A stretch of 64,000 bases of DNA from Spirochaetia bacterium (lineage in GTDB: Bacteria > Spirochaetota > Spirochaetia > CADAEX01): positions 6,201 to 70,200 of the forward strand of contig JAKSTW010000002.1 in the NCBI GenBank assembly GCA_024402405.1. The letters are read 5' to 3'. Numbering within the stretch: the first letter of the stretch is position 1; every line of letters starts with the position of its first letter. Positions 3,831 to 64,000 of the stretch are shown here, one piece after another. The notes below the pieces were generated by a model. It was given only the letters and a program-made list of their open reading frames with translations, was not told where the DNA came from and ran no database searches. Made by a program: the position numbers and the translations under genes.

Positions 3831-5495
3831 TTACAGCTCGTAGGATACATGGGCTGCAATCTCGAAGTCATTGATAGTCTTGCCGCCGATGTTATGGTAG
3901 TTGTCAATGTTTATATAGTACGCATCAGCTCCCACCTTGAAGCTTCTGTTCAGCCTTTTCTCTCCGTGAAGTCCGATGACCAGCTCTCTGGCAACATCGT
4001 CTCCGGTAGGTGATATCCTGTTTCTTGCTCCGTTGTATGAGAATGGATCTGAAAGTGAGTCATTCAGCTCTCCCAGAAATTTCATGGTGACTTCAGCACC
4101 CAGTTTCAGATCATCTGGTATTCTGTATTCTCCTGCCAGGTAGAAGACCATGGCATCAGGACCATGTTCATATCCTGTAGGCTTGTCTACATACATATAT
4201 CCGTCCTCGATGTATGACCAGTAGCGGCGTCTGTTGGTGTATCGTGTCAGAGGATGCCACCTGTTGTAAAGATACGGATCGGTCTTGGCTCCTTCCAGTT
4301 TCAGAGTCAGAAATCCTGTGCTTACAGGCATCACATATCTGGCTCCCAGCATATATCCCAGTGCTGTCGGTCTGGAAGAATCGCTCTCAATGGCCAGCTT
4401 GCACTCATCCATGGCAAACTGTGCATAAATGTCCAGTCCTCTGCACGGAGCATAATCTGCTTCCAGTGACATCAGCGAATTGCTACACTCCGGGGCGAAT
4501 ACACTGTGAAATATTGTGACAGGGTTTATATTGCTGAGTTCCGGGTATTTGTTTCCGAAAATAATTGCCTCAGTTGCGGCTACACTGACCTTATCTGTTA
4601 TTCTGGCCTCCAGTCTGTGCGCCATAAGGGCCTTGTACCGTTCCCTGAAGTTATCATAGTTGCCCTGAGTCAGTCCGGGATCGGTCTTGTCTATCTCTTT
4701 TTCTTCCTTGGTGAGATGTGATTCCATGCCGGCATATATTGTGGTGAATTTCAGCACTTTCCAGTAGGTGGTGAATTTTATTACATTGTAGAAATCTGAA
4801 TAGTCAGACAGGACCAGATTGCCGGTCTCGCCATTTCCCCAGCTGAGCTTGTCACGGCCGAACTGAACATTCCAGTGATTCCCTCCGGCTGACATGAATG
4901 CTCTGAACGGAATGGTAGGATCCAGATTCTGGATTTTTTCCGGCACATTGCAGTAGTCGTAGTCGCAGTCTGTGACCACATCATGGGCCTCGCGCAGTGT
5001 CAGGTTGAAGTCAATGTAGAAATTATCCCACAGAAAGAATTCAAATGGAATGTCCACGAGGGGAAGACGTTCCTCATATCCGTGCTCCCATTCATCCCTG
5101 TCGTCATCGGTCTTTACATAACCTTCAAGATTGGCTTTGAGTTTTATGGCCACACCGGCTTGCTCCTCTTTGCCCAGCAGGATCCTTTTCTGGAATGATT
5201 TTATTATGTTGTCATAAGCCAGTTTCTCGGCTCCCTCCAGGTGGTCAGGATCCAGTTTCGACAGGATCATGTCGATCTCATCCTCGCTCCACGGACGTGC
5301 ATAGGATGGTGGTGTGAGTCCCTTTATCAGATAAAGGGTGTCAATATCCTTGTAGATCTCGCTGTCCAACGGTACGATCCGCTGCCTGTTGCCATCACCG
5401 AAACATGGAAATGCCAGTATGGATATAAATGCTGTCAGACAGATAAACCTCAGTATGCCTGCCATTTTGCGCCCAGTGCCAGTATTCCTCTCCAT
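3831..5495 (-). CDS. Secreted outer-membrane protein, putative Wzi-like capsule-assembly family (tandem paralog A)
   Basis: It has a signal peptide. The N-terminal pattern Y..D.L...KGL...P..RPWSEDEI and the conserved block FGRDKLSWGNGETGNL are shared with the adjacent ORF. An alternative start (MAGILRF) lies at 5465. Assignment to the Wzi family is from memory of that family's N-terminal motif and is not verified. Confidence 0.45.
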   Translation of the reverse strand: MERNTGTGRKMAGILRFICLTAFISILAFPCFGDGNRQRIVPLDSEIYKDIDTLYLIKGLTPPSYARPWSEDEIDMILSKLDPDHLEGAEKLAYDNIIKSFQKRILLGKEEQAGVAIKLKANLEGYVKTDDDRDEWEHGYEERLPLVDIPFEFFLWDNFYIDFNLTLREAHDVVTDCDYDYCNVPEKIQNLDPTIPFRAFMSAGGNHWNVQFGRDKLSWGNGETGNLVLSDYSDFYNVIKFTTYWKVLKFTTIYAGMESHLTKEEKEIDKTDPGLTQGNYDNFRERYKALMAHRLEARITDKVSVAATEAIIFGNKYPELSNINPVTIFHSVFAPECSNSLMSLEADYAPCRGLDIYAQFAMDECKLAIESDSSRPTALGYMLGARYVMPVSTGFLTLKLEGAKTDPYLYNRWHPLTRYTNRRRYWSYIEDGYMYVDKPTGYEHGPDAMVFYLAGEYRIPDDLKLGAEVTMKFLGELNDSLSDPFSYNGARNRISPTGDDVARELVIGLHGEKRLNRSFKVGADAYYINIDNYHNIGGKTINDFEIAAHVSYEL

Positions 5496-7123
5496 TCGTC
5501 CTCTCCTTTTATATTGCCTTTATTCTTTGTGTAATCCAGTGAAAATGCTGCATTGAGCTTGACACCGTAATATGGAATTCTGTATTCGCCGTGAAGTGTG
5601 AAGTCCAGATTTGATTCCTTGTGGATGCCCGATATGCCGTGATCCAGGAACTTGTACTCGTCATCCCAGTCTTTGTATGCACCGCCGATATCCCAGCCGA
5701 TGCCATCGTCATGAGCATGGGTATTTATGTTTCCGAATCCGTGCTGTGTGTACATGAAAGAAAGTCCTCCCTTCCATTCCGGAGATGCATTGTAGGTGAT
5801 GTCAGCATATACCAGCTGTGAGTTCGGAGGCAGAAAATGTCCTGCACTGCTTCCATAGTGGGAATAACTGTTTCTCTTGTCTCCTGAGAAGAGCTTGTGA
5901 GTGTACATCCAGTGAGACAGGTATGTGTATTCCAGTGTCAGGTCAAGTTTTGGGACAACATCATAGAATTTGTATCCTGCTGTGAGACCTGCGATATTAT
6001 GAAAGTAATTTATGTTGAACATCTTGTCGAAATCCCAGTCATCCATGTAAAGAGAAAGGTAGAGCTTTGTGGCACAGAATCTGAATACAAAGTCCATTCC
6101 TCCGAATTTGTTGTCTCTGTCTCCGCCGAACACCTCGCTGATGTAATAGAGTGAGAATGGGTTGATATAACCGGGGGCAAAACGCTGTGAGTATATTACA
6201 GTCTCATATACAGAGAACATGAACCATTTCCATGGCTGGAATTCAAACCGGTGGGAAGATATCATCTTGTCCTGATCCTCAGTGGCTCCGAATTCTTCCA
6301 CATCCCGCAGGAATCCTGTCATCCAGCTGTAGTACATTTTCCCGCCGATAGGAAAGTCGAAGAACAGATATTCATAAGGCTTTGATGTCTTTGAGAGTGA
6401 CAGTGATGCCAGCTCTCCCGGACCCCAGTTCAGAGCATTTCTTCCTGCTGATATATGGGTGAATGGCAGATCTGCTGAAAACTGGTTGATCTGATCCATT
6501 CTGAGTGAAAGCTCTGTGTCTCCCACAGACCTTTCGGCATGATGATTGAAACCCTTGTCCTTTGTGTCCAGGTTGTATGTGTACATATTGAAGTCAGGTT
6601 TCAGCGGGTCCTGATAAAGTCTGTAAGGGGCTGTCTCCCAGTTGTCCAGAACTGCGTATATATCGCTTCTGACTCCCAGGTACACATTCTTGCCGGCATA
6701 CAGATCCAGAATGAAATCACTTCCGACAGATGAGCTGTTATCCTGGAGATCTCCCAGATCCGCATTGAGGCCTGCATGCGGTGCCAGGTTGGCATCTGCC
6801 CCGAAATGCTCTCCTCTGTAGCTGAACAGATTGAACTTATCCCCTTTGAGCCTGTCGATATAGTGATAAAGCTGCTCCTTCTCTGAATCTGTCAGACTGT
6901 CTGGATTTTCCAGAACCAGAGCCTTCACCTCATTGAGATATTGCAGAGCCCTTTTCTCTGTGTATGGCTTTACGTCCGGCATATAATAGATCCAGCCTTT
7001 TGAATAAGCCTTATCAAGAAATTCATATACAGGGTCATCATAGACCAGGTTCTTGGCTGACTGAGCCGCTGCCGGTATTGCTGCCAGCGTTACGATAAGC
7101 AGGATGAATGCAAGTTTTTTCAT
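5450..7123 (-). CDS. Secreted outer-membrane protein, putative Wzi-like capsule-assembly family (tandem paralog B)
   Basis: The signal peptide is MKKLAFILLIVTLAAIPAAAQS. The motifs VYEFLDKAYSKGWI and AGRNALNWGPGELASL are homologous to the corresponding blocks in paralog A. The protein ends in an aromatic residue (WQAY). Confidence 0.45.
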   Translation of the reverse strand: MKKLAFILLIVTLAAIPAAAQSAKNLVYDDPVYEFLDKAYSKGWIYYMPDVKPYTEKRALQYLNEVKALVLENPDSLTDSEKEQLYHYIDRLKGDKFNLFSYRGEHFGADANLAPHAGLNADLGDLQDNSSSVGSDFILDLYAGKNVYLGVRSDIYAVLDNWETAPYRLYQDPLKPDFNMYTYNLDTKDKGFNHHAERSVGDTELSLRMDQINQFSADLPFTHISAGRNALNWGPGELASLSLSKTSKPYEYLFFDFPIGGKMYYSWMTGFLRDVEEFGATEDQDKMISSHRFEFQPWKWFMFSVYETVIYSQRFAPGYINPFSLYYISEVFGGDRDNKFGGMDFVFRFCATKLYLSLYMDDWDFDKMFNINYFHNIAGLTAGYKFYDVVPKLDLTLEYTYLSHWMYTHKLFSGDKRNSYSHYGSSAGHFLPPNSQLVYADITYNASPEWKGGLSFMYTQHGFGNINTHAHDDGIGWDIGGAYKDWDDEYKFLDHGISGIHKESNLDFTLHGEYRIPYYGVKLNAAFSLDYTKNKGNIKGEDEWRGILALGAKWQAY

Positions 7124-23014: not shown

Positions 23015-23638
23015 TTGATTTATTCGGAGGATCGAATGGAAGCTGTTACACGTATTTCTATTGTGAGACACGGTGAGACTGAATGGAATATTGATGACAG
23101 AATGCAGGGTATCAAAGACAGCCCTCTGACTGACAAGGGTATAAAACTGGCAAAGGAGCTGGGCGAAAAGCTTTCAGACATGAAATTTTCCAGAATCTAT
23201 ACCAGCGACCTGGGAAGAGCTTTTGATACTGCAAAATATATAAATGAGAGACTTGATCTGGAGATCGTCCCGGAGAAGCTGCTCCGTGAGCGCAATATGG
23301 GAATTTTCGAGGGATACAGCTGGGCTTATGTAAAGGAGCATTATCCTGAGGAGTTCAGAAAGACTGTCTCCGATGACATGGAGTACCGTATCCCTGGGGG
23401 ACAGAGCAAACAGGATTATGTGGACCAGATTGCGGATTTCATGAAATTCATCACTGAAAAGCATCCGGGAGAGAATATTCTGGCTGTGACACACCGTGGT
23501 TTCATCGACTTTTTCATGCGCCAGGTTATGGGCATATCTGTGAATGCCAGAAGATGCTTCAAGGTTGGTAATACCAGCCTTAATGTATTCTCATTTGAGA
23601 AAGGACGCTGGGTGCTGGAACATTTCGGAGATATCTGA
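23015..23638 (+). CDS. Histidine phosphatase family protein (phosphoglycerate mutase-like)
   Basis: It has the RHGETEWN catalytic motif. The start may be the M at 23036. Confidence 0.7.
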   Translation: MIYSEDRMEAVTRISIVRHGETEWNIDDRMQGIKDSPLTDKGIKLAKELGEKLSDMKFSRIYTSDLGRAFDTAKYINERLDLEIVPEKLLRERNMGIFEGYSWAYVKEHYPEEFRKTVSDDMEYRIPGGQSKQDYVDQIADFMKFITEKHPGENILAVTHRGFIDFFMRQVMGISVNARRCFKVGNTSLNVFSFEKGRWVLEHFGDI

Positions 23639-39640: not shown

Positions 39641-41422
39641 TCAGCGGATCAATGCCTTGGGTGATCTGCCTATAAGATCCCTGCGTCCTGCCAGGATCAG
39701 TGCTTTGCGTACTTTTTCCCTGTTCTCCGGCTTGTGGAAATGGAGCAGAGCACGCTGCATATTCTTCTCCTCCTCTGTCCCCGGCACATATACTTTCTTC
39801 ATTGTCAGCGGATCATAACCGGTATAATACATGCAGGTGGAAACAGTTCCTGGGGTAGGATAGAAATCCTGCACCTGGTCTGGTATGAACTTCTCATCCC
39901 GGAGGAATTCTGCCAGTTCTATTGCTGCCTTCAGGTCGCTGCCGGGATGTGAGGATATGAGGTATGGGATAAGATATTGTTTTTTCCCTATCCGCTCATT
40001 TTCCTCTTTGAACATCTTCTCAAATTTTCTGTAGACTTCCGGCCGTGGCTTGCCCATCAGATCCAGCACTCTGGCGCAGATATGTTCCGGTGCTATCTTC
40101 AGCTGTCCGCTTATGTGGTGTTGGCACAGCTCATGGAAAAATTCCTGGCTGCTGTCGGAGAGCAGATAATCAAAACGGATTCCAGACTTGATGAATACTT
40201 TTTTTATTCCAGGTATTGCCTTGAGCTTTCTGAGCAGTTCCAGATAATCCTCATGGCTTACCTTCATGTTTGGGCATGGCTTGGGAAAAAGGCATCTTCT
40301 GTCCTGACATGCTCCTGATTTCAGCTGCTTGTCGCAGGCAGGCTGCCGGAAATTGGCTGTAGGACCTCCCACGTCATTTATGTATCCCTTGAAATTCGGT
40401 TTCTTTGTCAGCCTGATTGCCTCGTCTATTATTGATTGATGGCTTCTGGCCTGAATGATCCTTCCCTGGTGGAATGTAAGGGCACAGAAATTGCAGCTGC
40501 CGAAACAGCCTCTGGCACTTATGAGACTGAATTCCACTTCCTTTATGGCCGGTACACCTCCATCTTTCTCATAGCATGGATGATATGTGCCCATATATGG
40601 CAGTGCATATACTCTGTCCATTTCCTCTGTTGTGAGGATTTTTGCGGGAGGGTTCTGGATCATATACTGGGTACCGGTTTTCTCAACCAGCATCTTGGCT
40701 GAGAATGGGTCTGTATTTCTGTACTGGATCGCAAAGCTCTTGGCAAAAGTTTTTTTGTCTGCCAGATCTTCCTCATATGATGGCAATGTTATGAGATCAC
40801 CTTCCGGGAGCTGTGAGCTTTTGACCACTGTCCCCCGGATGTCTTTCATATTTTTTATCTCCTCTCCTGCTTTGATGCGGCGGGAGATCTCCCAGAAAGG
40901 ATTCTCACCCATGCCATAGATCAGCATGTCTGCCTTGGAATCTGTCAGTATGGATCGGCGGAGTGAATCTGACCAGTAGTCGTAGTGGGAGAGTCTCCGG
41001 AGAGATGCTTCGATTCCTCCGATGATGATAGGGATGCCCTTGTATGCCTGCTTGGCCAAGGATGTATATACGATGATGGCTCTGTCCGGTCTCTTTCCTG
41101 CTATACCGCCAGGTGAGTACTGGTCTTTGCTACGGCGCTTGCTCTTTGATGAGAAATTTGCCACCATGGAATCCACATTTCCTGCATTTATCAGAAATGC
41201 CAGCTTCGGACGTCCCAGTGTCTTCACTGACTCAGGATCCTTCCAGTCAGGCTGAGGTATGATTCCTACCCTGAAACCTTCTGCTTCCAGCACTCTGGAT
41301 ACAATGGCAGTTCCGAAAGAAGGGTGATCCACATAGGCATCACCTGTAATTATGGCAAAATCAACAGAATCCCATCCTCTATTATGCATGTCTTCTTCTG
41401 AAATCGGCAGAAAATCTCTCAT
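39641..41422 (-). CDS. ygiQ: YgiQ-family (UPF0313) radical SAM protein
   Basis: It has a CxxxCxxC cluster (CFGSCNFC) and matches the YgiQ family N- and C-terminally. Length is 593 aa. Confidence 0.8.
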   Translation of the reverse strand: MRDFLPISEEDMHNRGWDSVDFAIITGDAYVDHPSFGTAIVSRVLEAEGFRVGIIPQPDWKDPESVKTLGRPKLAFLINAGNVDSMVANFSSKSKRRSKDQYSPGGIAGKRPDRAIIVYTSLAKQAYKGIPIIIGGIEASLRRLSHYDYWSDSLRRSILTDSKADMLIYGMGENPFWEISRRIKAGEEIKNMKDIRGTVVKSSQLPEGDLITLPSYEEDLADKKTFAKSFAIQYRNTDPFSAKMLVEKTGTQYMIQNPPAKILTTEEMDRVYALPYMGTYHPCYEKDGGVPAIKEVEFSLISARGCFGSCNFCALTFHQGRIIQARSHQSIIDEAIRLTKKPNFKGYINDVGGPTANFRQPACDKQLKSGACQDRRCLFPKPCPNMKVSHEDYLELLRKLKAIPGIKKVFIKSGIRFDYLLSDSSQEFFHELCQHHISGQLKIAPEHICARVLDLMGKPRPEVYRKFEKMFKEENERIGKKQYLIPYLISSHPGSDLKAAIELAEFLRDEKFIPDQVQDFYPTPGTVSTCMYYTGYDPLTMKKVYVPGTEEEKNMQRALLHFHKPENREKVRKALILAGRRDLIGRSPKALIR

Positions 41423-42461: not shown

Positions 42462-43460
42462 TTATCTTTTAAGTGCCATTGCACAGATTTTCTCGCACAG
42501 ATCTCCGAAAGAGATTCCCATTTTTGCCGCAGACTGGGGGAGCAGACTGGTGGCTGTCATACCTGGCAGAGTATTGATCTCCAGCACATAAATCTCGCCT
42601 TCCGGTGTCATCCTCAGATCGACTCTGCAGTAATTCTCGATTTTTGCTGCTTTGGCTGCAGCCAGTGCTATGGAACGCATTCTGTCTGATACAGCACTGC
42701 TGAGAGGTGCCGGGAAGATCTCCTCTGCTCCGCCTGGCATATATTTGCTCTGGAAGTCAAAGATCTCTGAAAGCTTAGGAATTATCTCACCGACTGCCAG
42801 CGCCTGTCCGTCCAGGATGCCGACTGTGAATTCCCTGCCTGGAATGAACTTTTCAAGCATGACCTCTGTATCATATTTACAGGCTGTTTCCACAGCTTTC
42901 TGCAGATCCTCCTGTTTCTTCACAACAGTGAGTCCTACTGTGGAGCCCTCTTTGTTAGGCTTGACGATAAGAGGAAGGCCCAGTTTCCGGACTGCTGCAT
43001 CCAGATCTGTGGGCATCATCAGCCATTCCGGAGTCGGAACTCCGTTTCTGACGAACATCATCTTTGAGATGTCCTTATCCATGCAGCATGCGCTCGGTGT
43101 GTGGGACGGACCTGTGTATGGAATGCCCATTATGTCCAGGAATCCCTGCATGGCACCATTTTCTCCCTTGCCGCCGTGAAGTGCCAGAAAGCATACATCT
43201 ATATTTTTAAAGATTCCCTGTGCTATAAGCGGCAGAAGTCCTCCTGTCATCATCTTCAGGCTGTCTGTGTCCGGTGGCAGCGGCGGCACCTTGCTGCTGA
43301 GAAATGCCTCCTCGTCCTGTGGCTTTATAAGGCCGGTTGCGGTATCTATGGCAATGACATTGTGTCCTCTGTCCCTCAGAACTTTGAAAACCTGGGCAGC
43401 ACTGGCGATGGAGACATCACGCTCTGAGCTCTGTCCCCCGAAAAGTACAGCTATATTCAT
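42462..43460 (-). CDS. ddl: D-alanine--D-alanine ligase
   Basis: It has the N-terminal motif VLFGGQSSERDVS and an ATP-grasp domain. Length is 332 aa. Confidence 0.85.
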   Translation of the reverse strand: MNIAVLFGGQSSERDVSIASAAQVFKVLRDRGHNVIAIDTATGLIKPQDEEAFLSSKVPPLPPDTDSLKMMTGGLLPLIAQGIFKNIDVCFLALHGGKGENGAMQGFLDIMGIPYTGPSHTPSACCMDKDISKMMFVRNGVPTPEWLMMPTDLDAAVRKLGLPLIVKPNKEGSTVGLTVVKKQEDLQKAVETACKYDTEVMLEKFIPGREFTVGILDGQALAVGEIIPKLSEIFDFQSKYMPGGAEEIFPAPLSSAVSDRMRSIALAAAKAAKIENYCRVDLRMTPEGEIYVLEINTLPGMTATSLLPQSAAKMGISFGDLCEKICAMALKR

Positions 43461-44818: not shown

Positions 44819-46426
44819 ATGTCTGAATTGGTATTGTTGGGAGATGAGGCAGTTGCTCTGGGTGCCATCCATGCCGGACTTTCCGGTGCCTATGGTTATC
44901 CTGGAACACCATCATCTGAGATACTTGAATATCTTATAAATGAAGCAGAGAAGACAAAGGCTTTCCATGCTTCCTGGTGCAGCAATGAGAAGACTGCTTA
45001 TGAGGATGCTCTTGGAACTTCTTTCGCAGGAAAGAGAGCAATTGTAACAATGAAGCATGTTGGTCTTAATGTGGCGGCTGATCCGTTCATGAACTCAGCA
45101 CTGCTGAAGATCAATGGCGGTCTGGTTATCGTTGTGGCTGATGACCCTGGTATGCACTCATCACAGGGTGAGCAGGATTCTCGTTTCTTCGCTGATTTTG
45201 CCAAGGTTCCATGTTTCGAACCTACCAACCAGCAGGAAGCTTATGAGATGACCCGCGAGGCTTTCGATATTTCTGAAAAATACAAGGTGCCTGTGCTTAT
45301 GAGAATGGTGACAAGACTGGCTCATTCCAGGGCTGTTATCACACCATGGGATAAGGTGAGGGCACAGAATCCGGTGAAACGTCCTGAAGATACAAAGGGA
45401 TGGAGACTGCTTCCTGCCCTGGCACAGAAACTCTGGGTTGAACTGCTGGAGACAAACAAGGAGTTTGCAGCATATTCTGAACAGACACCATTCAATAAAC
45501 TTACAATAAATCCTGACTGCAAGAAACTGGGTATCATCACAACAGGGCTGGGAAAGAACTATTTTGAAGAGAACCTGCCTGATATGGACTGCAAGCCTTC
45601 TCATCTGCATATCGGTTTCTATCCTGCTCCTGTGGAGAAGATCAGAAAACTGGCAGAAAATGTTGATAAGATTCTGGTTATAGAAGAAGGCTACCCTGTA
45701 ATTGAAACAAGACTCCGCGGTATTCTGCCACAGAATATTGCCATTGAGGGAAAACTTGACGGTAAGGTTCCTATGACCGGAGAGCTGGATCCGGATGTTG
45801 TCAGACCTGCTCTTGGACTGAGCAGAATTCCTAGCCGGAAAGTTGAAGGTCTTCCTGGACGTCCTCCACAGCTGTGCCAGGGCTGTCCTCATGTTGATTC
45901 CTATGAGGCTATCAATCTGGCTGTCAAGGACTATCCGCAGCACATTGTGGCTTCTGATATCGGATGCTATTCACTTGGTGCCCTGCCACCATATTGTGCC
46001 ATCGAGACGATCATCTGCATGGGTGCGTCCATCGGAACAGCACAGGGAGCTGCTGAAGCTGGTCTGAAACCTGCACTGGCTGTGATCGGTGACAGCACAT
46101 TCTATCATTCCGGTCTTACAGGACTGGTCAATGCAGTTGCTGCCAATGCACCTATGACAGTCATTATCCTGGATAACTCAACTGTGGCTATGACCGGGGG
46201 ACAGAGCACAATACTGCCATCCAGCAAACTGTATAATCTGGTCATCGGTCTTGGTGCTGATCCTGAGCATGTCAAAACTATTGTTCCTCTCAAGAAGAAT
46301 CTGGAGGAGAATGCGGCCATAATCAAGAAAGAAATGGAATATGAGGGATTGTCTGTCATCATTTCTGTAAGGGAATGTCTGGAAGAGGCAAAACGCCGTA
46401 TGAAAAGGGAGAGCTTGAAAAAATGA
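44819..46426 (+). CDS. iorA: Indolepyruvate:ferredoxin oxidoreductase alpha subunit
   Basis: It has a TPP-binding domain and ferredoxin-type Cys motifs (CQGCPH), followed by iorB. Confidence 0.8.
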   Translation: MSELVLLGDEAVALGAIHAGLSGAYGYPGTPSSEILEYLINEAEKTKAFHASWCSNEKTAYEDALGTSFAGKRAIVTMKHVGLNVAADPFMNSALLKINGGLVIVVADDPGMHSSQGEQDSRFFADFAKVPCFEPTNQQEAYEMTREAFDISEKYKVPVLMRMVTRLAHSRAVITPWDKVRAQNPVKRPEDTKGWRLLPALAQKLWVELLETNKEFAAYSEQTPFNKLTINPDCKKLGIITTGLGKNYFEENLPDMDCKPSHLHIGFYPAPVEKIRKLAENVDKILVIEEGYPVIETRLRGILPQNIAIEGKLDGKVPMTGELDPDVVRPALGLSRIPSRKVEGLPGRPPQLCQGCPHVDSYEAINLAVKDYPQHIVASDIGCYSLGALPPYCAIETIICMGASIGTAQGAAEAGLKPALAVIGDSTFYHSGLTGLVNAVAANAPMTVIILDNSTVAMTGGQSTILPSSKLYNLVIGLGADPEHVKTIVPLKKNLEENAAIIKKEMEYEGLSVIISVRECLEEAKRRMKRESLKK

Positions 46427-46989: not shown

Positions 46990-47014
46990 TTTCTGATCTG
47001 TTTTGTTTATACAG

Positions 47015-47042
47015 GCCGGCACAGGAAGTGCCGGCTTTTTTA
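47015..47042 (+). terminator. Rho-independent terminator after iorB
   Basis: The hairpin is GCCGGCAC-aggaa-GTGCCGGC, followed by T7. Confidence 0.65.
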
Positions 47043-47057
47043 TTTTAAAGATAAGAT

Positions 47058-47178
47058 GCTCTGTCCCCCTTGGAATATTTTATTTATAACATCATAAATA
47101 AAATAAATTATGATATATGAATTTTCCCTTTTCTTTCTTTCATTAGACTGGAAAATTGAATTTTTTGGGGGACAGAGC
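47058..47178. repeat. REPIN-like doublet: perfect 12-bp inverted repeats GCTCTGTCCCCC / GGGGGACAGAGC enclosing a 97-bp AT-rich spacer
   Basis: The inverted repeats are read directly from the sequence. The same core recurs at least 13 more times in the window. Confidence 0.6.
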
Positions 47179-47235
47179 ATGGAATTTTGAATCAAAATCC
47201 TATTTTTTTCACTATATGAAATAATAGGAGGATAT

Positions 47236-47706
47236 ATGAGCAGAAAGTGCAGGGTGATTGTGGATGGTGGTGTTTATCACATTTATAACAAAATAAATGC
47301 ATGTGAGTATCTTCTGGCAGATTCGGAGACAAAAGATTTATTTCTGAAAGTACTGACAGAAGCTAAAAAAATCAAAGAATTCAGATTCAGAATCAAAAAT
47401 CTTACGATCATGAATAATCATATTCATATGCAGGTAAAAATGGATCGCGGTGAAAATCTTTCCAAGGTAATGCAGTGGATATTTTCAGTATTTGCACAGA
47501 GATATAATAGAAAATATAGCAGAAAAGGACATCTGTGGATTGACAGGTTCAAGAGCAAAGTTATTGAAAGCATAACTACATTTGAAAAGGTTTTTGAATA
47601 TATAACAAATAATCCTGTCAAAGCTGGAATTGTCAATCATGCGGAAGATTATGAATATGGAGTGTTTCATATTTCAAGGAAATGGATAGGGCTTATAGAT
47701 TTTTAA
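47236..47706 (+). CDS. REP-associated tyrosine transposase (RAYT) / IS200-like Y1 HUH transposase (COG1943-type)
   Basis: It has the HUH motif HIHMQV, an N-terminal YHIYNK motif, GHLWIDRF and the hallmark C-terminal YITNNPVKAGIV motif. It is flanked by inverted copies of the GGGGACAGAG repeat. Confidence 0.65.
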   Translation: MSRKCRVIVDGGVYHIYNKINACEYLLADSETKDLFLKVLTEAKKIKEFRFRIKNLTIMNNHIHMQVKMDRGENLSKVMQWIFSVFAQRYNRKYSRKGHLWIDRFKSKVIESITTFEKVFEYITNNPVKAGIVNHAEDYEYGVFHISRKWIGLIDF

Positions 47707-47718
47707 TCTTTTTTGCTC

Positions 47719-47728
47719 CTCTGTCCCC
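47719..47728. repeat. Copy of the CTCTGTCCCC repeat (inverted relative to the copy at 47167), 13 nt downstream of the RAYT stop
   Basis: This is an exact 10-mer match. Confidence 0.6.
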
Positions 47729-47756
47729 GATTTATTTTCTATGTTATAATATCTGT

Positions 47757-48926
47757 ATGACCGATATGAATATTCTTAAAGGGCTCGTACATACTATTAT
47801 TCCTGAGATCGTGGAAATACGTCATCAGCTTCATCAGATCCCAGAGATTGCATTCAAAGAATATAAGACCTCAGCAAAAATAAGAGAAATTCTTGAACCT
47901 CTTGGGATGGAATTTTTACCGTCTATTTTTGAAACTGATGTGACTGCTGTTCTGGATAGTGGTAAACCTGGAAAAACTATTCTTCTGCGGAGTGATATCG
48001 ATGCTCTTCCGATAGAAGAGGCATGTTCTGTCCCCTATAGATCCCTGCATCCTGGATTTGCCCACAGTTGCGGTCATGATGGTCATATGGCGATTCTTTT
48101 GGGAACTGCCATGGTCCTTTCCAAAATGAAAGAACAGATAAATGGCAAGGTTAGGTTTTTATTTCAGCCGGGAGAAGAGAGTCTGGCAGGTGCAAAAAGT
48201 ATGGTGGAGGCTGGATATCTTCAGAAGGAGCCGGTTCCTGATGTGGCCTATGCTCTTCATGGATGGCCGGGGACAGAGCACGGATGTATAGAGTGCTGTC
48301 CTGGTCCTATCATGGCGTCCACTGATGATTTTATGATCACTCTTACCGGCGCAGGAGGCCATGGTGCCATGCCTGAGAAAGCTGTTGATCTGCTGGCTGC
48401 TGCTGCCGGGTTTATTCTTGCCATGAAAGAAGCTGTTTCCTGGATCTCAGCTCCATATGATCCGGCTGTGGTTTCTGTCTGTTCTGTTGAGGGAAAAGGC
48501 ACTTTCAATGTATTTGCTGACAGGATCATCCTGAAGGGAACCTCCCGTTATCTGAAAGATTCCACAGGAAATAAGATAAAGAAAACCATGGTGGAGCTTC
48601 TGGATAAATATATTCTTCCTTCAGGGGGGAAGTATGAGATAGTCAGTCCTCTGCCTGATTATGTTTCTGTGAATAATGATCCTGAACTTTATTCCCGTGC
48701 TGCTGAAATTGCTGAAAAGTATCTTGGCCGGGAAAAATGGAATGGCAATGGTATCTGTTCCATGTGTGGCGATGACTTCGGTTTTATCTCCAGAAAGATC
48801 CCAAGCCTTTATTTCCGATTGGGTGCGGGGACAGAGCACGCATCACTCCACAATCCTGCCTATGACTTTGCAGATGACACCATTGAGGACGGCATTCTCA
48901 TGATGTGCGGTCTGGTTCTTGGTTGA
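47757..48926 (+). CDS. M20D-family amidohydrolase (N-acyl-amino-acid amidohydrolase/hippuricase-like)
   Basis: It has the metal-binding motif SCGHDGH. The start is moved to MTDMNILKG; the ORF-track start at 47682 overlaps the RAYT. Confidence 0.7.
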   Translation: MTDMNILKGLVHTIIPEIVEIRHQLHQIPEIAFKEYKTSAKIREILEPLGMEFLPSIFETDVTAVLDSGKPGKTILLRSDIDALPIEEACSVPYRSLHPGFAHSCGHDGHMAILLGTAMVLSKMKEQINGKVRFLFQPGEESLAGAKSMVEAGYLQKEPVPDVAYALHGWPGTEHGCIECCPGPIMASTDDFMITLTGAGGHGAMPEKAVDLLAAAAGFILAMKEAVSWISAPYDPAVVSVCSVEGKGTFNVFADRIILKGTSRYLKDSTGNKIKKTMVELLDKYILPSGGKYEIVSPLPDYVSVNNDPELYSRAAEIAEKYLGREKWNGNGICSMCGDDFGFISRKIPSLYFRLGAGTEHASLHNPAYDFADDTIEDGILMMCGLVLG

Positions 48927-52312: not shown

Positions 52313-52322
52313 CTCTGTCCCC
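52313..52322. repeat. Copy of the CTCTGTCCCC repeat in the carB 3' flank, followed by GGTGGGCTTTTT
   Basis: This is an exact 10-mer match. Confidence 0.55.
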
Positions 52323-54383: not shown

Positions 54384-55624
54384 TGAAAGGGAAGAGAGTG
54401 GTCATTACCGGGTTGGGTACTGTAAATCCGCTTGGTAACAATGTGTCTGAATTCTGGCAGGGACTGATGGATGCCAGATGCGGTATTGGTCTGATTACCA
54501 GATATGATGTCTCAGATTCAGAAGTTAAGATCGCAGGTGAGGTGAGGGATTTTGATCCTTCTTCTGTTATTGACAGAAAAACTGCCAGACGGATGGATCT
54601 TTTCTCCCAGTATGCCGTATATGCTTCTGCAGAGGCAATAAAGGATGCTTCCTTTGAGGAGAAATTCTGGGATGGGGACAGAGCAGGACTGGTGCTGGGG
54701 GTCGGTACCCTTGGCTGGACATCTGCTGAAGAAGGCTACGGAAAAATATTTTCTGGCGGTGAATCACGTGTTCCTGTTTTTACTATTCCTAAGATTATTC
54801 CTAATCTTGGTGCTGGAAATGCGGCCATGGCACTGCAGCTGCATGGTCCGTGCTTCTCTCTTTCCACTGCCTGTGCGTCAGGTGCTGATGCCATAGGAAA
54901 TGCGGCCAGGCTGATTGAATCAGGATATTGTGATGTGATGCTGGCAGGGGGGACAGAGGCGGGAATATCCAGACTGTGTATGGGCGGATTTGCCGCTATA
55001 CAGGCCCTGACGATGACTCATAATGATTCTCCTGAGATCTCAAGCCGTCCTTTTGACAGAGACCGGGATGGTTTTGTCATGGGGGAGGGAGCTGGAATGC
55101 TGGTGCTGGAGGATTATGAACATGCTGTCCGACGTGGGGCCAGGATTTATTGTGAGGTCGCTGGTTACGGCTCCACATGTGATGCTTATCATATGACGGC
55201 TCCTGAGCCTGACGGAAAATATTCGGTGAAAGCTATGAGCCGGGCATTGGAAAATGCAGGTATGGGGACAGAGGATATACAGTATATCAATGCCCATGGT
55301 ACTTCCACTGTATTAAATGACAGAATGGAGACCCGTGCTATAAAAAATATGTTCGGAGAGCAGGCATACAGGCTGAAAGTCTCATCGATAAAGTCCATGC
55401 TGGGACACTGTATCGGAGCTGCCGGAGCCATAGAGGCAATTTCATCGGCCCTGACACTGTATCATCAGTGGATACCTCCTACGATCAATTATGAAAATCC
55501 TGATCCTGAATGTGACCTTGATTATGTCCCGGGCAGGGGAATATCTGCAGAGGTCAGCGGTGTCATGTCAAATTCTTTCGGATTTGGCGGTCATAATTCA
55601 GTTTTGGTATTCCGCAGGATATAG
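54380..55624 (+). CDS. fabF: 3-oxoacyl-ACP synthase II
   Basis: It has the active-site Cys in ...LSTACASGADAIG, and His motifs (AHGTST, GHCIGAAGA). Confidence 0.85.
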   Translation: MMKGKRVVITGLGTVNPLGNNVSEFWQGLMDARCGIGLITRYDVSDSEVKIAGEVRDFDPSSVIDRKTARRMDLFSQYAVYASAEAIKDASFEEKFWDGDRAGLVLGVGTLGWTSAEEGYGKIFSGGESRVPVFTIPKIIPNLGAGNAAMALQLHGPCFSLSTACASGADAIGNAARLIESGYCDVMLAGGTEAGISRLCMGGFAAIQALTMTHNDSPEISSRPFDRDRDGFVMGEGAGMLVLEDYEHAVRRGARIYCEVAGYGSTCDAYHMTAPEPDGKYSVKAMSRALENAGMGTEDIQYINAHGTSTVLNDRMETRAIKNMFGEQAYRLKVSSIKSMLGHCIGAAGAIEAISSALTLYHQWIPPTINYENPDPECDLDYVPGRGISAEVSGVMSNSFGFGGHNSVLVFRRI

Positions 55625-56388
55625 GCAGACCAGCAGTAAGCTGCTATTCCGAAAGCTACTCCCACATTGATGGATTTTTTAACTCCGAAAAGTGGGATCG
55701 ATACTACTCCTCCGCTGCTTCTTGCTATTTCCAATGTCTCCGGACTGACCCCTGTTTCTTCCGAGCCAAGTATCATGATTCCATTTTCAGGAAATTTGAA
55801 TTCTTCTATGGGTGTACCATCTGTCTCCAGTGCAAATATGCTCTGTCCCCGGTGTGCGGCTTCCTTGAGTTCTGACAGTTCTGCCTGTCTCCAGCTGATC
55901 TTCTCCTCTGTCCCCATGGCGCTGCGTTTTGCTCTTGGCTGTTCTGGAGTTGGTGTTGCCGGAGAAAGCAATACTTCTGAAAAACAGAACGATTCTGCTG
56001 TCCTGAAGATTGAACCCACATTGAATGGAGACCGTAGATTCTCCAGATATACAGAAATCGGAAGTAGTCTGCGGCTGTCTCCGGCTGCATCAGTGTCCAG
56101 CATATCCCAGTCAGCGTACTGTATTCCGGCTTTATCCAGAATCTTATATTTCAGACTGTCCGCAGCCCATAGTGCTTCCGGACCATCAAGGCGGACTGCC
56201 AGATCTTCGATTTCTTCCTGAAACCTCTGTCCCCCTGATATAGCTGCTGCATTCAGGATCATCCGGAGATACTGAACATCTATTTCTTTTCCTTCTTTCA
56301 GTTGTTTTTCCGCATCTTTCAGTATAAGTGCCGCTTTCCTGTATTGAAGTCTGGGATCCAGTGATCTGAATTTTTTTTCTGTAAACAT
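55591..56388 (-). CDS. SpoU/TrmH-family RNA 2'-O-methyltransferase with N-terminal extension
   Basis: It has SPOUT motifs (NVGSIFRTAESF...ILGSEETGVS...INVGVAFGIAAY). Confidence 0.65.
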   Translation of the reverse strand: MFTEKKFRSLDPRLQYRKAALILKDAEKQLKEGKEIDVQYLRMILNAAAISGGQRFQEEIEDLAVRLDGPEALWAADSLKYKILDKAGIQYADWDMLDTDAAGDSRRLLPISVYLENLRSPFNVGSIFRTAESFCFSEVLLSPATPTPEQPRAKRSAMGTEEKISWRQAELSELKEAAHRGQSIFALETDGTPIEEFKFPENGIMILGSEETGVSPETLEIARSSGGVVSIPLFGVKKSINVGVAFGIAAYCWSAYILRNTKTEL

Positions 56389-57918: not shown

Positions 57919-59787
57919 ATGAAAAAGTATTTTTTGCTGGCAGTGATGGCCGCACTGCTGGTAATGGCGGTATTTACTGGCTGCGACAATGGATCAAGCA
58001 GTCCTGAATCTAAATACATGGTAACCTTTGACCTGAACTGGTATGGTTCAGATCCGGCAGGAATGGGAGATGTAAAAGCCCCGAAGTCGGTGCGGTTTAG
58101 TGATGCTGATCAGATGATAACATTGCCTCAGGTACTGGACAGTGACGGTAATATTTATTTAACAGAGAATGGATATTATGTAGGCACATGGTATAAGGAT
58201 GCGGATCTTACCCAGAGTGCAGGAAGTGCACTTACAGGTGAAGCACAGTTTGCTCCTGGAGGAAACTGCATTCTGTATGCAGGCTGGTCAACCAAGACAG
58301 TGACCCTGGCATGGGATCTGAACTACCCTGCGGGGGTAAGTGCTCCTGAAAATCCAGCAAAATCAAGAGTTACAGCAGGAGCTGTAGTAACATCCGCAAA
58401 AGTGCCGACAGCAGATGCACTTCCTGACGGAACAGTGTTTGCCGGCTGGTTCGACAGTCCTGTGAACGGCGAGGGAAATCAGCTTGTTGCAGGCGAAACC
58501 AAGGCTCCGTTCAACGGCCTTACTTACTATGCACAGTGGAAGTACCCTGTAAAGGTTAAATACTTGCTCCCTGACGGAACAGAGTATATGACAGTGGATC
58601 AGAAGGCATATGATGCAGTGGAGATGCCGGCCGATCCAGTGCTTGATCCATGCTTTGCAGGCTGGTTCGACCAGGACGGTAAGATGCTCACAGCCGATGT
58701 AATCATAAAGAAGGATGCAGTCTACACAGCAAAGGCAGGCTACACGCTCGTCATAAACAAGACCACAGGACAGACAGACGGAGAGGCAGGAGTTGAAGTT
58801 GGCTCCGCCGCGCTCACAATCATAACAGAGCCTGATGACCATGCAAACGGAAAGTATGTAGAAGGCTATTATGCTGATGAGCCATGCACAACCAAGGTTG
58901 CATACAATGACGGAAAGCTTCTGCCGAACGTAACAGGCTATACAGATGCGGACGGAAAATGGGCAGGAGACAGCTCCAAAGTGCTTTATGCAAAGTGGAA
59001 GAAGCTCAGCAACATCGGAAGCACTCTTGTGTTCTACATCGACAAGACAAACGGTCGTGCTGCAAAGAACTACAAGTTCTATGATGCAAGTAACAACCTG
59101 CTCACAGCAGAAGAGGCAGCCGACAACGATTACGGCATAACCTTCAGCGGCACACCTGCTAAATATGCATACTACGGCGAGGGCAGGGACAGGTACTATG
59201 TAGTCAACGACACGCTGGACGAGGAGAAGACAGCATATACATGGGCATATTACACAGATGCAAGCACTTACAAGCAGGAAGAACTCTGTGTAGGAACATC
59301 ATATCAGGCAATCGGCAGTGGAAGAGCAAACACAGCCGAGATAATGGCAAAGGATGGAGGCAAGTATATCAGCGACAACAGCATAACAAGAGTATTAGGT
59401 GGCGCAAATAAGTCTGCTACAATCTGGTATGCGCTTGATGATTTGAATAAGCTGGCTGACGCTGAAACTGTAAGTACTGTCAGCGGTGGTAAGAACTTAG
59501 GCTGTACCGACTGGTTCGTGCCGTCGCTTAATGAGCTTCTGAAGATGACACGTCTTGTAGATAAGCTGACATGGAACGGTGGAGACAAGACAAAAACAGA
59601 AGAAGCTCCATATGCTTCAGACCCTGCATGGGCAGATCTCAAGGATTATGTTGCAGCCGGTTCCGAGTGGTCAAGTTCCGGCTACTCTGCTGCGGCTGCG
59701 TACGTATGGCGCTTCACTACGGGCCTGAGCATTTATTACGATAAGACTAATACGGCAGGCCGCTTAGATGCAGTGAGGGCTTTCTAA
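57919..59787 (+). CDS. Surface lipoprotein with Listeria-Bacteroides (InlB B-type) repeats and C-terminal DUF1566/Lcl-C-like domain
   Basis: It has a lipobox (VFTGCDNGSSS). Repeated F/Y-x-G-W-F/Y-D motifs include VGTWYKD, FAGWFDSPVNGEG and FAGWFDQDG. The C-terminus carries LGCTDWFVPSLNELL. The start is set at MKKYFLL with an AAGGAGAGG Shine-Dalgarno sequence. Confidence 0.65.
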   Translation: MKKYFLLAVMAALLVMAVFTGCDNGSSSPESKYMVTFDLNWYGSDPAGMGDVKAPKSVRFSDADQMITLPQVLDSDGNIYLTENGYYVGTWYKDADLTQSAGSALTGEAQFAPGGNCILYAGWSTKTVTLAWDLNYPAGVSAPENPAKSRVTAGAVVTSAKVPTADALPDGTVFAGWFDSPVNGEGNQLVAGETKAPFNGLTYYAQWKYPVKVKYLLPDGTEYMTVDQKAYDAVEMPADPVLDPCFAGWFDQDGKMLTADVIIKKDAVYTAKAGYTLVINKTTGQTDGEAGVEVGSAALTIITEPDDHANGKYVEGYYADEPCTTKVAYNDGKLLPNVTGYTDADGKWAGDSSKVLYAKWKKLSNIGSTLVFYIDKTNGRAAKNYKFYDASNNLLTAEEAADNDYGITFSGTPAKYAYYGEGRDRYYVVNDTLDEEKTAYTWAYYTDASTYKQEELCVGTSYQAIGSGRANTAEIMAKDGGKYISDNSITRVLGGANKSATIWYALDDLNKLADAETVSTVSGGKNLGCTDWFVPSLNELLKMTRLVDKLTWNGGDKTKTEEAPYASDPAWADLKDYVAAGSEWSSSGYSAAAAYVWRFTTGLSIYYDKTNTAGRLDAVRAF

Positions 59788-59838: not shown

Positions 59839-59875
59839 GCTCTGTCCACCAACTGCGGTGGACAGAGCTTTTATT
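59839..59875 (+). terminator. Rho-independent terminator whose stem is a variant of the window-wide repeat (GCTCTGTCCACC-aactgc-GGTGGACAGAGC + TTTTATT)
   Basis: It is a perfect 12-bp stem located 52 nt after the lipoprotein stop. Confidence 0.6.
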
Positions 59876-62770: not shown

Positions 62771-64000
62771 TGGCTTTTGTAAATCTTACCGGAGTTTCTC
62801 TGGCCTTCGGGGACAGAGATGTGCTTAAGGATGTGAATCTGAATATCTGCACTACTACCAGGGCTGCTATCACCGGAGCCAACGGCAGCGGCAAGACCAC
62901 ATTCCTGAAAATTATGGCTGGGAAGCTGTCACCTGACAAGGGTTCAACTATTATTCAGAAAGGGACACGTATCAGTTATCTGCCCCAGACAGGTCTTACT
63001 CATGCAGGCTCCACACTTATGGAAGAGGTGGAGAAATCATTCTCTTTTTTCCATACTCTCATAGCACGCAAGGAAGAAGTCGGGCGCCGTCTTGAGAATT
63101 ATATGCAGGAGACCAAGGAGGAGACCCAGCGTCTTCTGGAGGAAGATCATGATATCCAGGAAACTTTGCTGAACAGCGGATTTTATGACCGTAAGATAGT
63201 TAAGGAGAAAGTTCTGCTGGGACTTGGTTTTTCCAGAAATGACTTTGAAAAGAAGACCGAGGCTTTTTCCGGCGGATGGCAGATGCGCATAGCTCTGGCC
63301 AAGATTCTGCTGGAGAACCCTGATATCATGCTGCTGGACGAGCCTACCAACTACCTTGATCTGGAGGCCCGGCTATGGCTGGAGGATTTCATCAGTTCTT
63401 TCCATGGCGGAGTGGTTCTGGTTTCCCATGACCGATCTTTTCTTGATTCGACTGTAAATGAGATATATGAGCTGTTCGGCGGTACAATGAACCGTTATAA
63501 AGGTAATTACTCTGAATATGAGAAGCGGCGCAGCCAGGAGCTTGAGTCCCTGGTGAACCGTTATAAGCAGCAGCAGGATGAGATTGCCAAAGTCGAGCTT
63601 TTTATCCGCCGTTTCCGCTATCAGGCTACCAAAGCCAAACAGGTGCAGAGCCGTATAAAATATCTGGAGGGGCTTGAGCGCATTGAGATTCCTGAGAGCC
63701 TTAAAAAGATGCATTTCTCTTTTCCTGAGCCTCCACATTCCGGCAATGATGTTTTGATCCTGGAGGATCTGAGCAAGGCTTATGGCGATAACCATGTCAT
63801 AAATCATCTGGATTTCTTTGCCGCGAAAGGAGAGAAGATAGTCTTTGCCGGAAAAAACGGTGCCGGAAAATCTACCCTTATGCGTATAATCGCAGGAAAA
63901 GACAAGAATTATACCGGACTTGTGAAATATGGCAAGGATGTGAAGATAGAATATTTCTCCCAGGATTTTGAGGCCACACTGGATGATTCCAAGACAGTGG
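62770..64000 (+). CDS. ABC-F family ATPase (two tandem ABC domains), 3'-truncated by window end
   Basis: The first domain has Walker A GANGSGKTT, the signature FSGGWQMR and LLLDEPTNYLD. The second Walker A is GKNGAGKST. The start ATG overlaps the upstream stop (TAATG). The reading frame is open to the window end. Confidence 0.75.
   Translation, partial: MAFVNLTGVSLAFGDRDVLKDVNLNICTTTRAAITGANGSGKTTFLKIMAGKLSPDKGSTIIQKGTRISYLPQTGLTHAGSTLMEEVEKSFSFFHTLIARKEEVGRRLENYMQETKEETQRLLEEDHDIQETLLNSGFYDRKIVKEKVLLGLGFSRNDFEKKTEAFSGGWQMRIALAKILLENPDIMLLDEPTNYLDLEARLWLEDFISSFHGGVVLVSHDRSFLDSTVNEIYELFGGTMNRYKGNYSEYEKRRSQELESLVNRYKQQQDEIAKVELFIRRFRYQATKAKQVQSRIKYLEGLERIEIPESLKKMHFSFPEPPHSGNDVLILEDLSKAYGDNHVINHLDFFAAKGEKIVFAGKNGAGKSTLMRIIAGKDKNYTGLVKYGKDVKIEYFSQDFEATLDDSKTV

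Follow-up and report, generated by a model that had tools for sequence, protein, structure and literature searches.

How can a short DNA word be tied to a transposase-class gene and yet lie mostly inside other genes? This question is raised by a 64 kb stretch of the genome of a Spirochaetia bacterium (contig JAKSTW010000002.1, positions 6,201 to 70,200; hereafter the window), in which an open reading frame (ORF) at 47236..47706 on the plus strand encodes a 156-aa protein of the RAYT class (REP-associated tyrosine transposases, where REP denotes a repetitive extragenic palindromic sequence). The window contains 17 exact copies of the 10-mer GGGGACAGAG, called the word or the motif below unless a variant is named, as against 0.09 expected from dinucleotide-preserving shuffles, none of 100 of which reached 17. 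GGGGACAGAG ranks first among all 10-mers of the window, and its thirty one-mismatch neighbours, pooled, occur 14 times compared to the 17 exact copies. An earlier note on this DNA had read the locus as a candidate active REP/RAYT system with REPINs, i.e. inverted REP doublets. Our comparison, which overall rests on about 110 homologous spirochaete loci, strongly supports that gene and repeat belong together, and it points to substitution in place as the origin of the copies in coding sequence.

The product of ORF 47236-47706 carries the segments NHIHMQV, GHLWIDRF and YITNNPVKAGIV, with H62-I-H64 as the HUH motif and Y122, within YITNNPVKAG, as the tyrosine; H62, H64 and Tyr122 are invariant across the alignment of homologues, and the tyrosine motif YITNNP has the class 2 form Y---NP. 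A Pfam scan returned Y1_Tnp as the sole domain (E 3e-13, residues 32-126) and no C-terminal helix-turn-helix (HTH) domain. The NCBIfam model REP_Tyr_transpos ('REP-associated tyrosine transposase') scored 81.1 bits, barely over its cutoff of 80, and the IS200 model scored 28.8 bits, under its cutoff of 55. The only sequence match in the PDB was E. coli TnpA-REP (4ER8, E 0.003), which was also the best fold match (E 6e-9) of an AlphaFold model with a pLDDT (predicted local distance difference test) of 78.7; the ISDra2 and IS608 transposases came next. On these sequence criteria the earlier assignment of the ORF to the RAYT-type Y1 proteins holds, and we regard its product as a true Y1 HUH protein of the RAYT class that has kept its predicted catalytic residues.

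Around this gene the word occurs in an arrangement that is partly shared by the family and partly local. The copy GGGGGACAGAGC at 47167..47178 lies on the strand of the RAYT gene, 57 nt from the ATG at 47236, at a position that is conserved in the family. A copy in the opposite orientation at 47058..47069 (minus strand), which reads GCTCTGTCCCCC on the plus strand, forms an inverted doublet with it; this doublet spans 121 bp, has perfect arms of 14 nt (ATGCTCTGTCCCCC and GGGGGACAGAGCAT) and, folded as single-stranded DNA, reaches z = -5.0 relative to shuffles. A third copy, CTCTGTCCCC at 47719..47728 (minus strand), is inverted with respect to the upstream copy and is separated by 12 nt from the RAYT stop codon (47706). 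The three copies and the ORF thus lie where the earlier note had placed them. The copy at 47719-47728 is spanned by the ORF call of the downstream M20 peptidase gene (414 aa; the same call is found in public gene calls, P0018), and M20 orthologues are 390 aa long and start at the equivalent of about 47757-47766 (region 47682-47766). The long M20 call therefore probably starts too early, to judge from the alignment, and because the true start would lie near 47757-47766 we count this copy as intergenic. No known RNA family reached its gathering score between 46.5 and 48.2 kb. In the window as a whole, 9 copies are on the plus and 8 on the minus strand, the consensus of all 17 is S-GGGGACAGAG-S-A, and four are intergenic (47059, 47168, 47719 and 52313). 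The remaining 13 of 17 lie within ORFs, in agreement with the earlier statement that the core has spread into coding sequence.

We analyzed the position of the word relative to RAYT genes in loci retrieved by a one-genome-per-species scan (80 loci, nearly all from metagenome-assembled genomes of Spirochaetota) and by an independent metagenome scan (80 further loci). Identical copies of the protein are restricted to short metagenome contigs of the same organism, and homologues at 38-62% identity carry the label Spirochaetia. In the motif-rich loci of the genome set, a same-strand copy was present within 150 nt upstream of 37 of 43 RAYT genes, compared to 37 of 518 other genes (7%; Fisher p 6e-31), while an antisense copy preceded only 2 of 43 RAYT genes and 39 of 518 others. 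The metagenome set replicated the upstream copy, which was found in sense orientation in 47 and in antisense orientation in 24 of 67 loci. Furthermore, a search that did not presuppose the motif recovered the word as the commonest 9-mer within 200 nt 5' of RAYT in 20 of 31 metagenome loci that were at least 6 kb long. Downstream copies stayed at background, whether inverted (3 of 43 genome loci, namely the window, L004 and L012, and 4 of 60 metagenome loci) or direct (5 of 43 genome loci). Thus, of the earlier claim that the RAYT gene is flanked by inverted copies, the upstream same-strand copy proved widespread among RAYT loci, whereas the inverted downstream copy is present in the window but uncommon in the family.

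Upstream copies lie 40-120 nt ahead of the start codon, and arrays of 2-5 direct copies are frequent there. Arrays of 3-5 direct copies with 10-40-nt spacers stand just 5' of RAYT in L074 (1-110), L084 (9640-9830), L078 (9850-9960), L064 (9600-9960) and L077 (6950-7140), and in L074 a 23-nt unit, GGGGACGGAGGCAGCAAGGCCAG, is repeated four times. In a group of termite-gut Treponema a TATA-like box abuts the RAYT ATG, which may indicate leaderless transcripts. Within RAYT ORFs the word is rare: in 111 loci, the window included, there were 3 copies in 57.4 kb (0.05 per kb) compared to 1.6 per kb in the 3 kb to either side, and 3 of 13 codon-compatible sites were converted. RAYT ORFs are therefore poor in their own word, which suggests self-avoidance.

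Two sets of syntenic regions with and without RAYT show how the word behaves in resident genes. In L086-L088, whose M20 protein is 65% identical to that of the window, and in L089-L090 (56%), the order FKBP-ddl-aminotransferase-iorA-iorB-M20-carB is kept, there is no RAYT at the locus, and 7 nt separate the end of iorB from the start of M20. In the window the same interval holds an insert of ~770 bp that is missing from these relatives and that comprises a terminator, the motifs and RAYT; its left edge is the intrinsic terminator of iorB (47013..47037, plus strand). Neither the word, nor any variant, nor any over-represented 10-mer was present in the 14-21 kb covered in L086-L090 (6 kb in L088), compared to nine copies in the counterpart region of the window (~10 kb). 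Where these copies fall in genes, the sequences align without a single indel at the ddl, iorA and two M20 sites. The ddl copy (FGGQSS; 43429..43438, minus strand) differs from the RAYT-less orthologues by one synonymous change, GGC->GGG; the iorA copy (TGGQST; 46197..46206, plus strand) corresponds to TGGQTT or TGGQAT in orthologues, with different codons; and the two M20 copies, WPGTEH (48269..48278) and GAGTEH (48827..48836), both on the plus strand, replace WPGVPA or WPGLKT and GMGENY or GIGEEH, respectively.

The second set gave the same picture. In L172 and L004 the RAYT gene sits between a tRNA gene and a DUF2400 gene, with 12 (20.8 kb) and 11 copies (9.4 kb) of the word, respectively, whereas the syntenic L173 and L174 have no RAYT at the locus and no copies in 19.4 and 9.5 kb. 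All seven coding copies of L172 are gap-free relative to L173 and entail 1-3 amino-acid replacements each. In L004 (5500-5740), L006 and L172 (9270-9490) the RAYT cassette directly follows the tRNA gene and its terminator, and in L173 (9890-10000) the same tRNA gene and terminator are followed at once by DUF2400, i.e. a clean empty site. Comparison of RAYT-bearing and RAYT-less syntenic regions thus indicates that the word tracks the gene, arises by substitution and can override protein sequence. The earlier suggestion that repeat abundance might scale with RAYT presence among relatives is accordingly borne out at these two loci.

The coding copies are not only substitutional in appearance but also close to saturating. 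In related loci about 65% of the copies are in coding sequence, in all three frames and both orientations, and roughly one third are intergenic although intergenic DNA makes up only ~10%, a ~4-fold enrichment. We counted the sites at which the encoded peptide would permit the word, i.e. codon-compatible sites. In the window, where GGG accounts for only 8% of glycine codons, 13 of 21 sense sites carry it, compared to 0.21 expected from codon usage. In genomes with the ACGGAG variant, 66 of 96 sense sites (1.9 expected) and 24 of 47 antisense sites (0.55 expected) do so, whereas the other variant, serving as control, occupied 1 of 51 sites (0.34 expected). Overall, about 60-70% of codon-compatible sites have the word, compared to ~1-2% expected. 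Coding copies are all sense in the window (13/13) and ~70% sense to 30% antisense in the wider sample, which could suggest a function at the RNA level; we rejected this candidate, since codon-compatible sites are about twice as numerous in the sense direction and saturation is seen in both. The excess of sense copies is thus explained by the number of available peptide sites and not by a role in RNA. Substitution is further indicated by the three copies within fabF (54674..55273, plus strand; 54674 GDRA, 54949 GGTE and 55264 MGTE), where the alignment with the KAS II structure 1E5M is free of gaps. The coding copies were thus made by substitution, often with a change of amino acids, and not by insertion of a mobile unit.

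These observations bear directly on the classical REP/REPIN-RAYT explanation, according to which the repeats would be non-autonomous mobile doublets copied to extragenic sites by single-strand transposition. The resemblance is real as regards the RAYT-class protein, its catalytic core and fold (4ER8), an abundant cognate repeat by the gene and divergent paralogues within genomes; moreover, in the window the gene stands between inverted copies, the 121-bp inverted doublet folds well, and a few inverted pairs serve as terminator-like hairpins. However, REPs of E. coli and Pseudomonas are extragenic imperfect palindromes of 20-40 nt with a 5' GT[AG]G head that spread as inverted doublets, whereas the word here has no hairpin and no GTAG and is mostly intragenic. 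In 1,337 copies (1,199 dispersed and 138 RAYT-proximal) the information content was confined to positions -1 to +10 (~12 nt), as the earlier description of a short non-palindromic core would have it, and no conserved hairpin, palindrome or GT[AG]G head was found around the core. An extended element around the core was likewise rejected, with no conservation past ~12 nt and unrelated flanks in the 17 window copies. Pairs no more than 60 nt apart, counted among 1,464 copies, were direct in 231 and inverted in 42 cases, and homologues with 62% identity have two direct copies in place of the window's inverted doublet. The inverted flanks and the 121-bp doublet of the window, a doublet that the earlier note had correctly noticed and called REPIN-like, are thus local arrangements.

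The intragenic location of 13 of the 17 window copies, with every aligned one free of gaps relative to orthologues, contradicts the REP/REPIN explanation for coding copies. Given the absence of a palindrome and head, the mostly intragenic location, the predominance of direct pairs and a downstream inverted copy at background, we conclude that this repeat belongs neither to the REPs nor to the REPINs, and we consider this explanation very improbable. What survives of the proposed REP/RAYT system is the link between gene and repeat. Since the coding copies stem from substitution, active transposition of REPINs does not describe the findings.

The copies are unevenly distributed along the window, and the stretch from 39.7 to 62.8 kb, or -7.5 to +15.6 kb relative to RAYT, accounts for 16 of the 17 (scan test for clustering, p ~1e-5). 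Exact copies amount to 0.66 per kb in 39.7-64 kb compared to 0.03 per kb in 1-39.7 kb, while the two-mismatch background is alike in both parts (0.74 and 0.73 per kb). Similarly, 12 of 12 codon-compatible sites are converted in 39.7-64 kb but only 1 of 8 in 1-39.7 kb (p 1e-4). The left end of the dense region is a copy in the sense strand of ORF 39641-41422 (PGTE; 39773..39782, minus strand), and the right-most copy lies near the 5' end of an ORF starting at 62764 (FGDRD; 62809..62818, plus strand), 15.1 kb downstream of RAYT. Within the region, three copies (55841, 55906 and 56225; 55841..56234, minus strand), all sense, fall in the minus-strand ORF 55591-56388. The sole copy of the first 39.7 kb is in a histidine-phosphatase gene at 23015-23638 (23397..23406, plus strand); the seven unconverted codon-compatible sites there have 1-3 mismatches, e.g. 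GCGGACAGAG at 11506 in prfA. This motif-poor part contains core genes for pyruvate carboxylase (pyc), RelA/SpoT, PrmC, RF-1 (prfA) and topoisomerase IV (parE/parC), and the tetranucleotide signature is equal across window segments (r 0.93-0.96). Core genes, the same signature and the same two-mismatch background led us to reject the idea that the first 39 kb are a foreign island.

In the wider sample, the word was also denser near RAYT in the genome set: across 19 loci with full flanks there were 0.91 copies per kb within 3 kb and ~0.33 per kb beyond (p 6e-4), and across 42 loci, where the 300 nt beside the gene were left out, the density fell from 0.95 per kb at a distance of 0.3-3 kb to 0.61 per kb farther away (p 6.6e-4). 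In some loci (e.g. L009, L011, L063, L120, L129 and L172) the word is strictly local.

A regional distribution is typical of chromosome-architecture motifs, which counts in favour of a host function: the word would serve in regulation, nucleoid organisation or recombination and each copy would be under selection of its own, with RAYT as its domesticated reader or autoregulated via the upstream copy. The upstream copies, 40-120 nt before the start codon, do occupy a typical operator or activator position, and several RAYT groups behave as vertically inherited housekeeping genes (PMC5581495). Against this, the window shows no replication strand bias, its 9 plus and 8 minus copies lying amid a uniform positive GC skew, which also led us to reject a replication-oriented signal of the Chi or KOPS type. 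Moreover, copies occur wherever codons permit, unrelated to gene starts, and close relatives do without the word altogether. We therefore give a host function little credence.

Across homologues, gene and word vary together. The top 10-mer in most homologue loci is the word or a variant of it, with densities of up to ~2.6-2.7 copies per kb; the commonest variant among loci is GGGGACGGAG, and other top 10-mers are GGGGACAGAG, GGGACAGACC, GGTGTCAGAG, GGTGCCAGAG and GGGGTCGGAG. On the RAYT tree, the lineage variants (ACGGAG, ACAGAG, ACAGAC, GTCAGAC and TGCCAGAC) form clusters, and a switch between A and G has occurred at least twice. In L025, L100 and L107 the ACGGAG and ACAGAG variants are both abundant on single contigs, where two paralogues could have different specificities or a switch of variant could be under way. 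Several genomes have 2-3 RAYT paralogues with protein identities of 47-94%, so these are not recent copies, and a recent burst of an insertion sequence was ruled out on the same ground.

The upstream copy could also be viewed as a target, in which case an IS200-like cassette would have inserted beside a pre-existing abundant word, and local enrichment would result from insertions landing in word-dense patches. IS200/IS605 elements use a short strand-specific sequence as target and insert on its 3' side (PMC6006769), matching the conserved copy on the 5' side and same strand here; in addition, the cassette sits at different intergenic sites by lineage, and empty sites exist. The Y1 HUH fold is also common to both, as probably is single-stranded, strand-specific recognition. 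However, IS200/IS605 proteins have Y---Q where the protein here has the class 2 motif Y---NP and falls below the cutoff of the IS200 model; there is no tnpB and there are no subterminal hairpins here; and the paralogues are 47-94% identical compared to ~99% for IS200/IS605. Upstream arrays of 2-5 copies are unexpected for a target, and the origin of the word would be left unexplained. The target-site explanation fails above all because the relatives' empty sites contain no word, hence no target, and because the paralogues are old; we regard it as quite unlikely.

The closest published counterparts are the TIRYT genes, which are RAYT-like and flanked by inverted repeats sharing GGGGWSAS (Di Nocera et al., 2013, PMC3733652), and which were classified as TnpA-Y1 subclass 2.1 with a C-terminal HTH and no REPs near their genes (Quentin et al., 2018, PMC6006769); TIRYT/TIRtron elements also correspond to RAYT group 1 of Bertels. 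As in these elements, a Y1 HUH RAYT-like gene is flanked here by short repeats instead of REP hairpins, and the published consensus GGGG[AT][CG]A[CG] (PMC3733652, PMC6006769) is exactly fitted by GGGGACAG. In contrast, TIRYT proteins have ~240 aa with Bac_DnaA_C, HTH_23 or HTH_28, whereas the protein here has 156 aa and no HTH. Furthermore, the repeat here has 11-12 nt, its conserved flank is one-sided (upstream, same strand), and its copies are mostly intragenic by substitution; neither PMC3733652 nor PMC6006769 reports intragenic substitution-type copies or saturation of codon sites.

The nearest non-spirochaete relatives (P0010-P0015) have 33-37% identity, ~250 aa and a C-terminal extension, with weak, sub-threshold HTH matches in 3 of 5 scanned. 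In L091 (5922-12490), a Firmicute-like contig with 28% G+C, a doublet of GGGACGTTTCCT (~45 bp) provides two direct copies upstream of a 252-aa TIRYT-type homologue, and two inverted copies of the one-mismatch variant GGGACGGTTCCT lie downstream. Within 4 kb, the repeat occupies three additional sites (two doublets and one single copy), and farther out it is absent. Inverted repeats on both sides, as in TIRYT/TIRtron, are thus present in L091 and the window, and absent in most spirochaete homologues. From the fit to the TIRYT consensus, the ~250-aa relatives and the L091 repeats, we place the spirochaete clade within the TIRYT kind, as a short branch that lacks the HTH and in which the repeat has been reduced to 11-12 nt.

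In its dispersal the word resembles the DNA uptake sequences (DUS) of Neisseria, the uptake signal sequences (USS) of Pasteurellaceae and the HIP1 word of cyanobacteria, with which it shares a short non-palindromic form at ~1 copy per kb, genic and intergenic occurrence, substitution-type accumulation, effects on proteins, lineage variants, and inverted pairs acting as terminators (PMC3630211, PMC2817400, PMC5861425). Biased uptake and recombination might accordingly have spread the word, RAYT being merely a co-resident carrier or exploiter. The ~1-2 copies per kb in many loci, mostly genic yet with ~4-fold intergenic enrichment, speak for this explanation, as do terminator pairs, lineage variants and synonymous as well as some protein-changing accumulation, all of which match earlier descriptions (PMC3630211, PMC2817400). 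However, DUS, USS and HIP1 words are spread over the core genome and show no link to the gene of a Y1 nuclease, whereas the word here is anchored 5' of RAYT, clustered in the window and missing from RAYT-less relatives. An uptake mechanism leaves unexplained why 70-86% of RAYT genes are preceded by a copy in a fixed orientation, why the word is nearly lacking in 39 kb of core genes of the same window, why it is denser near RAYT and why it is depleted inside RAYT ORFs. We know of no uptake specificity in spirochaetes, and altogether judge this explanation unlikely.

The reading that we favour, and to which we assign a somewhat better than even chance, is that a RAYT/TIRYT-type nuclease of a Spirochaetota clade and its cognate word are linked by a RAYT-dependent substitution drive that is strongest near the gene. 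Under this drive reading, the ORF would encode a nuclease of the RAYT/TIRYT type that acts on single-stranded DNA, a Y1 HUH enzyme whose clade is almost confined to Spirochaetota, and GGGGAC[A/G]GAG, here S-GGGGACAGAG-S-A, would be its cognate recognition word. A ~770-bp cassette with the word in the RAYT 5' flank was inserted between iorB and the M20 gene. In lineages with RAYT, the word would then build up in resident DNA via length-preserving substitution or short-patch conversion until it fills most positions that the proteins tolerate, forcing some amino-acid changes, while intergenic copies would join terminators. RAYT would recognise the word in single-stranded DNA, and nicking with biased repair or strand exchange would convert near-cognate sites. 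The drive would have its greatest effect close to RAYT, in keeping with a protein that prefers to act in cis, and in some genomes would reach the whole chromosome. Of these elements, our comparison shows what the protein is, its specific association with the word, the substitutional origin and near-saturation of coding copies, the lack of the word in syntenic RAYT-less relatives and the clustering in the window, whereas recognition of the word by the protein and its part in conversion are inferred. A stronger version, in which the RAYT-type nuclease itself is a cis-biased sequence-converting drive that rewrites near-cognate 10-mers of the surrounding chromosome in place from its own 5'-flank copies, overrides codons and amino acids of housekeeping genes and eventually paints genomes, is in our estimation possible but on balance doubtful.

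Several observations weigh against a substitution drive centred on RAYT. The densest sub-cluster of the window, at 54.6-56.2 kb, sits 7-9 kb from RAYT, not beside the gene. About one third of the RAYT homologue loci have no abundant motif, and many others have a flat density of 1-2.7 copies per kb. In 22 metagenome loci, analyzed with the same 300-nt exclusion, the densities of 1.34 per kb near RAYT and 0.97 per kb further away did not differ significantly (p 0.17). A RAYT-centred halo as a general law was therefore rejected; with the genome set significant and the metagenome set not, we take the enrichment near RAYT to be genuine in some loci, the window among them, and not universal. Furthermore, the RAYT-less relatives are covered over 10-21 kb only, so that the absence of RAYT is a local one, and the co-occurrence of RAYT and word could come partly from shared ancestry. 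Binding or cleavage of the word by the RAYT protein is a step that we infer. Known Y1 enzymes recognise hairpins, and the word here has none; moreover, to our knowledge there is no mechanism by which a Y1 enzyme rewrites 10 nt in place.

Intergenic copies other than those around RAYT are associated with terminator-like structures. The copy at 52313..52322 (minus strand) lies inside a hairpin followed by a T-run directly after carB, as read straight from the sequence. At 59839..59868 two copies of a variant with one mismatch, GCTCTGTCCACC and GGTGGACAGAGC, stand in inverted orientation 6 nt apart and form a terminator-like hairpin just after a gene ending at 59787; its stem is perfect over 12 nt, its loop has 6 nt, and TTTTATT follows, so that it looks like an intrinsic terminator made of a motif variant. 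An analogous inverted pair follows the rubredoxin gene in L004 (7204-7238) and L172 (10973-11006). Unrelated to these findings, the window contains at 3831-7123 two adjacent paralogues with weak matches to Wzi, a capsule-assembly protein, beside a UDP-galactopyranose mutase gene.

In the literature we found no report of the word, of its behaviour, or of RAYT genes or uptake sequences in spirochaetes. Surveys of RAYTs score flanking 16-mers or hairpins (PMC5581495, PMC6006769), and by relying on these would miss a 10-mer without conserved flanks; such repeats thus escape 16-mer or hairpin screens. The findings also have practical consequences: gene callers over-extend ORFs across intergenic copies, and the word can distort analyses of codon usage and selection in spirochaete genomes.

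The role of RAYTs and the spread of their repeats have been a question of the field since 2010-2011, and the origin of the DUS, USS and HIP1 words is an older one. The loci described here link both questions, since a word that resembles uptake sequences in its substitution-type spread, saturation and protein change is nevertheless anchored at, and clustered round, a RAYT-class gene. Spread by substitution is an unexpected mode for the RAYT/TIRYT kind, and syntenic regions with and without RAYT (9-12 copies versus 0 in the same genes) constitute a direct comparative system. If the stronger, sequence-converting form of the drive is true, it would represent a new, transposase-derived way to propagate sequence without insertion, and would offer a mechanistic origin for DUS- and HIP1-like words.

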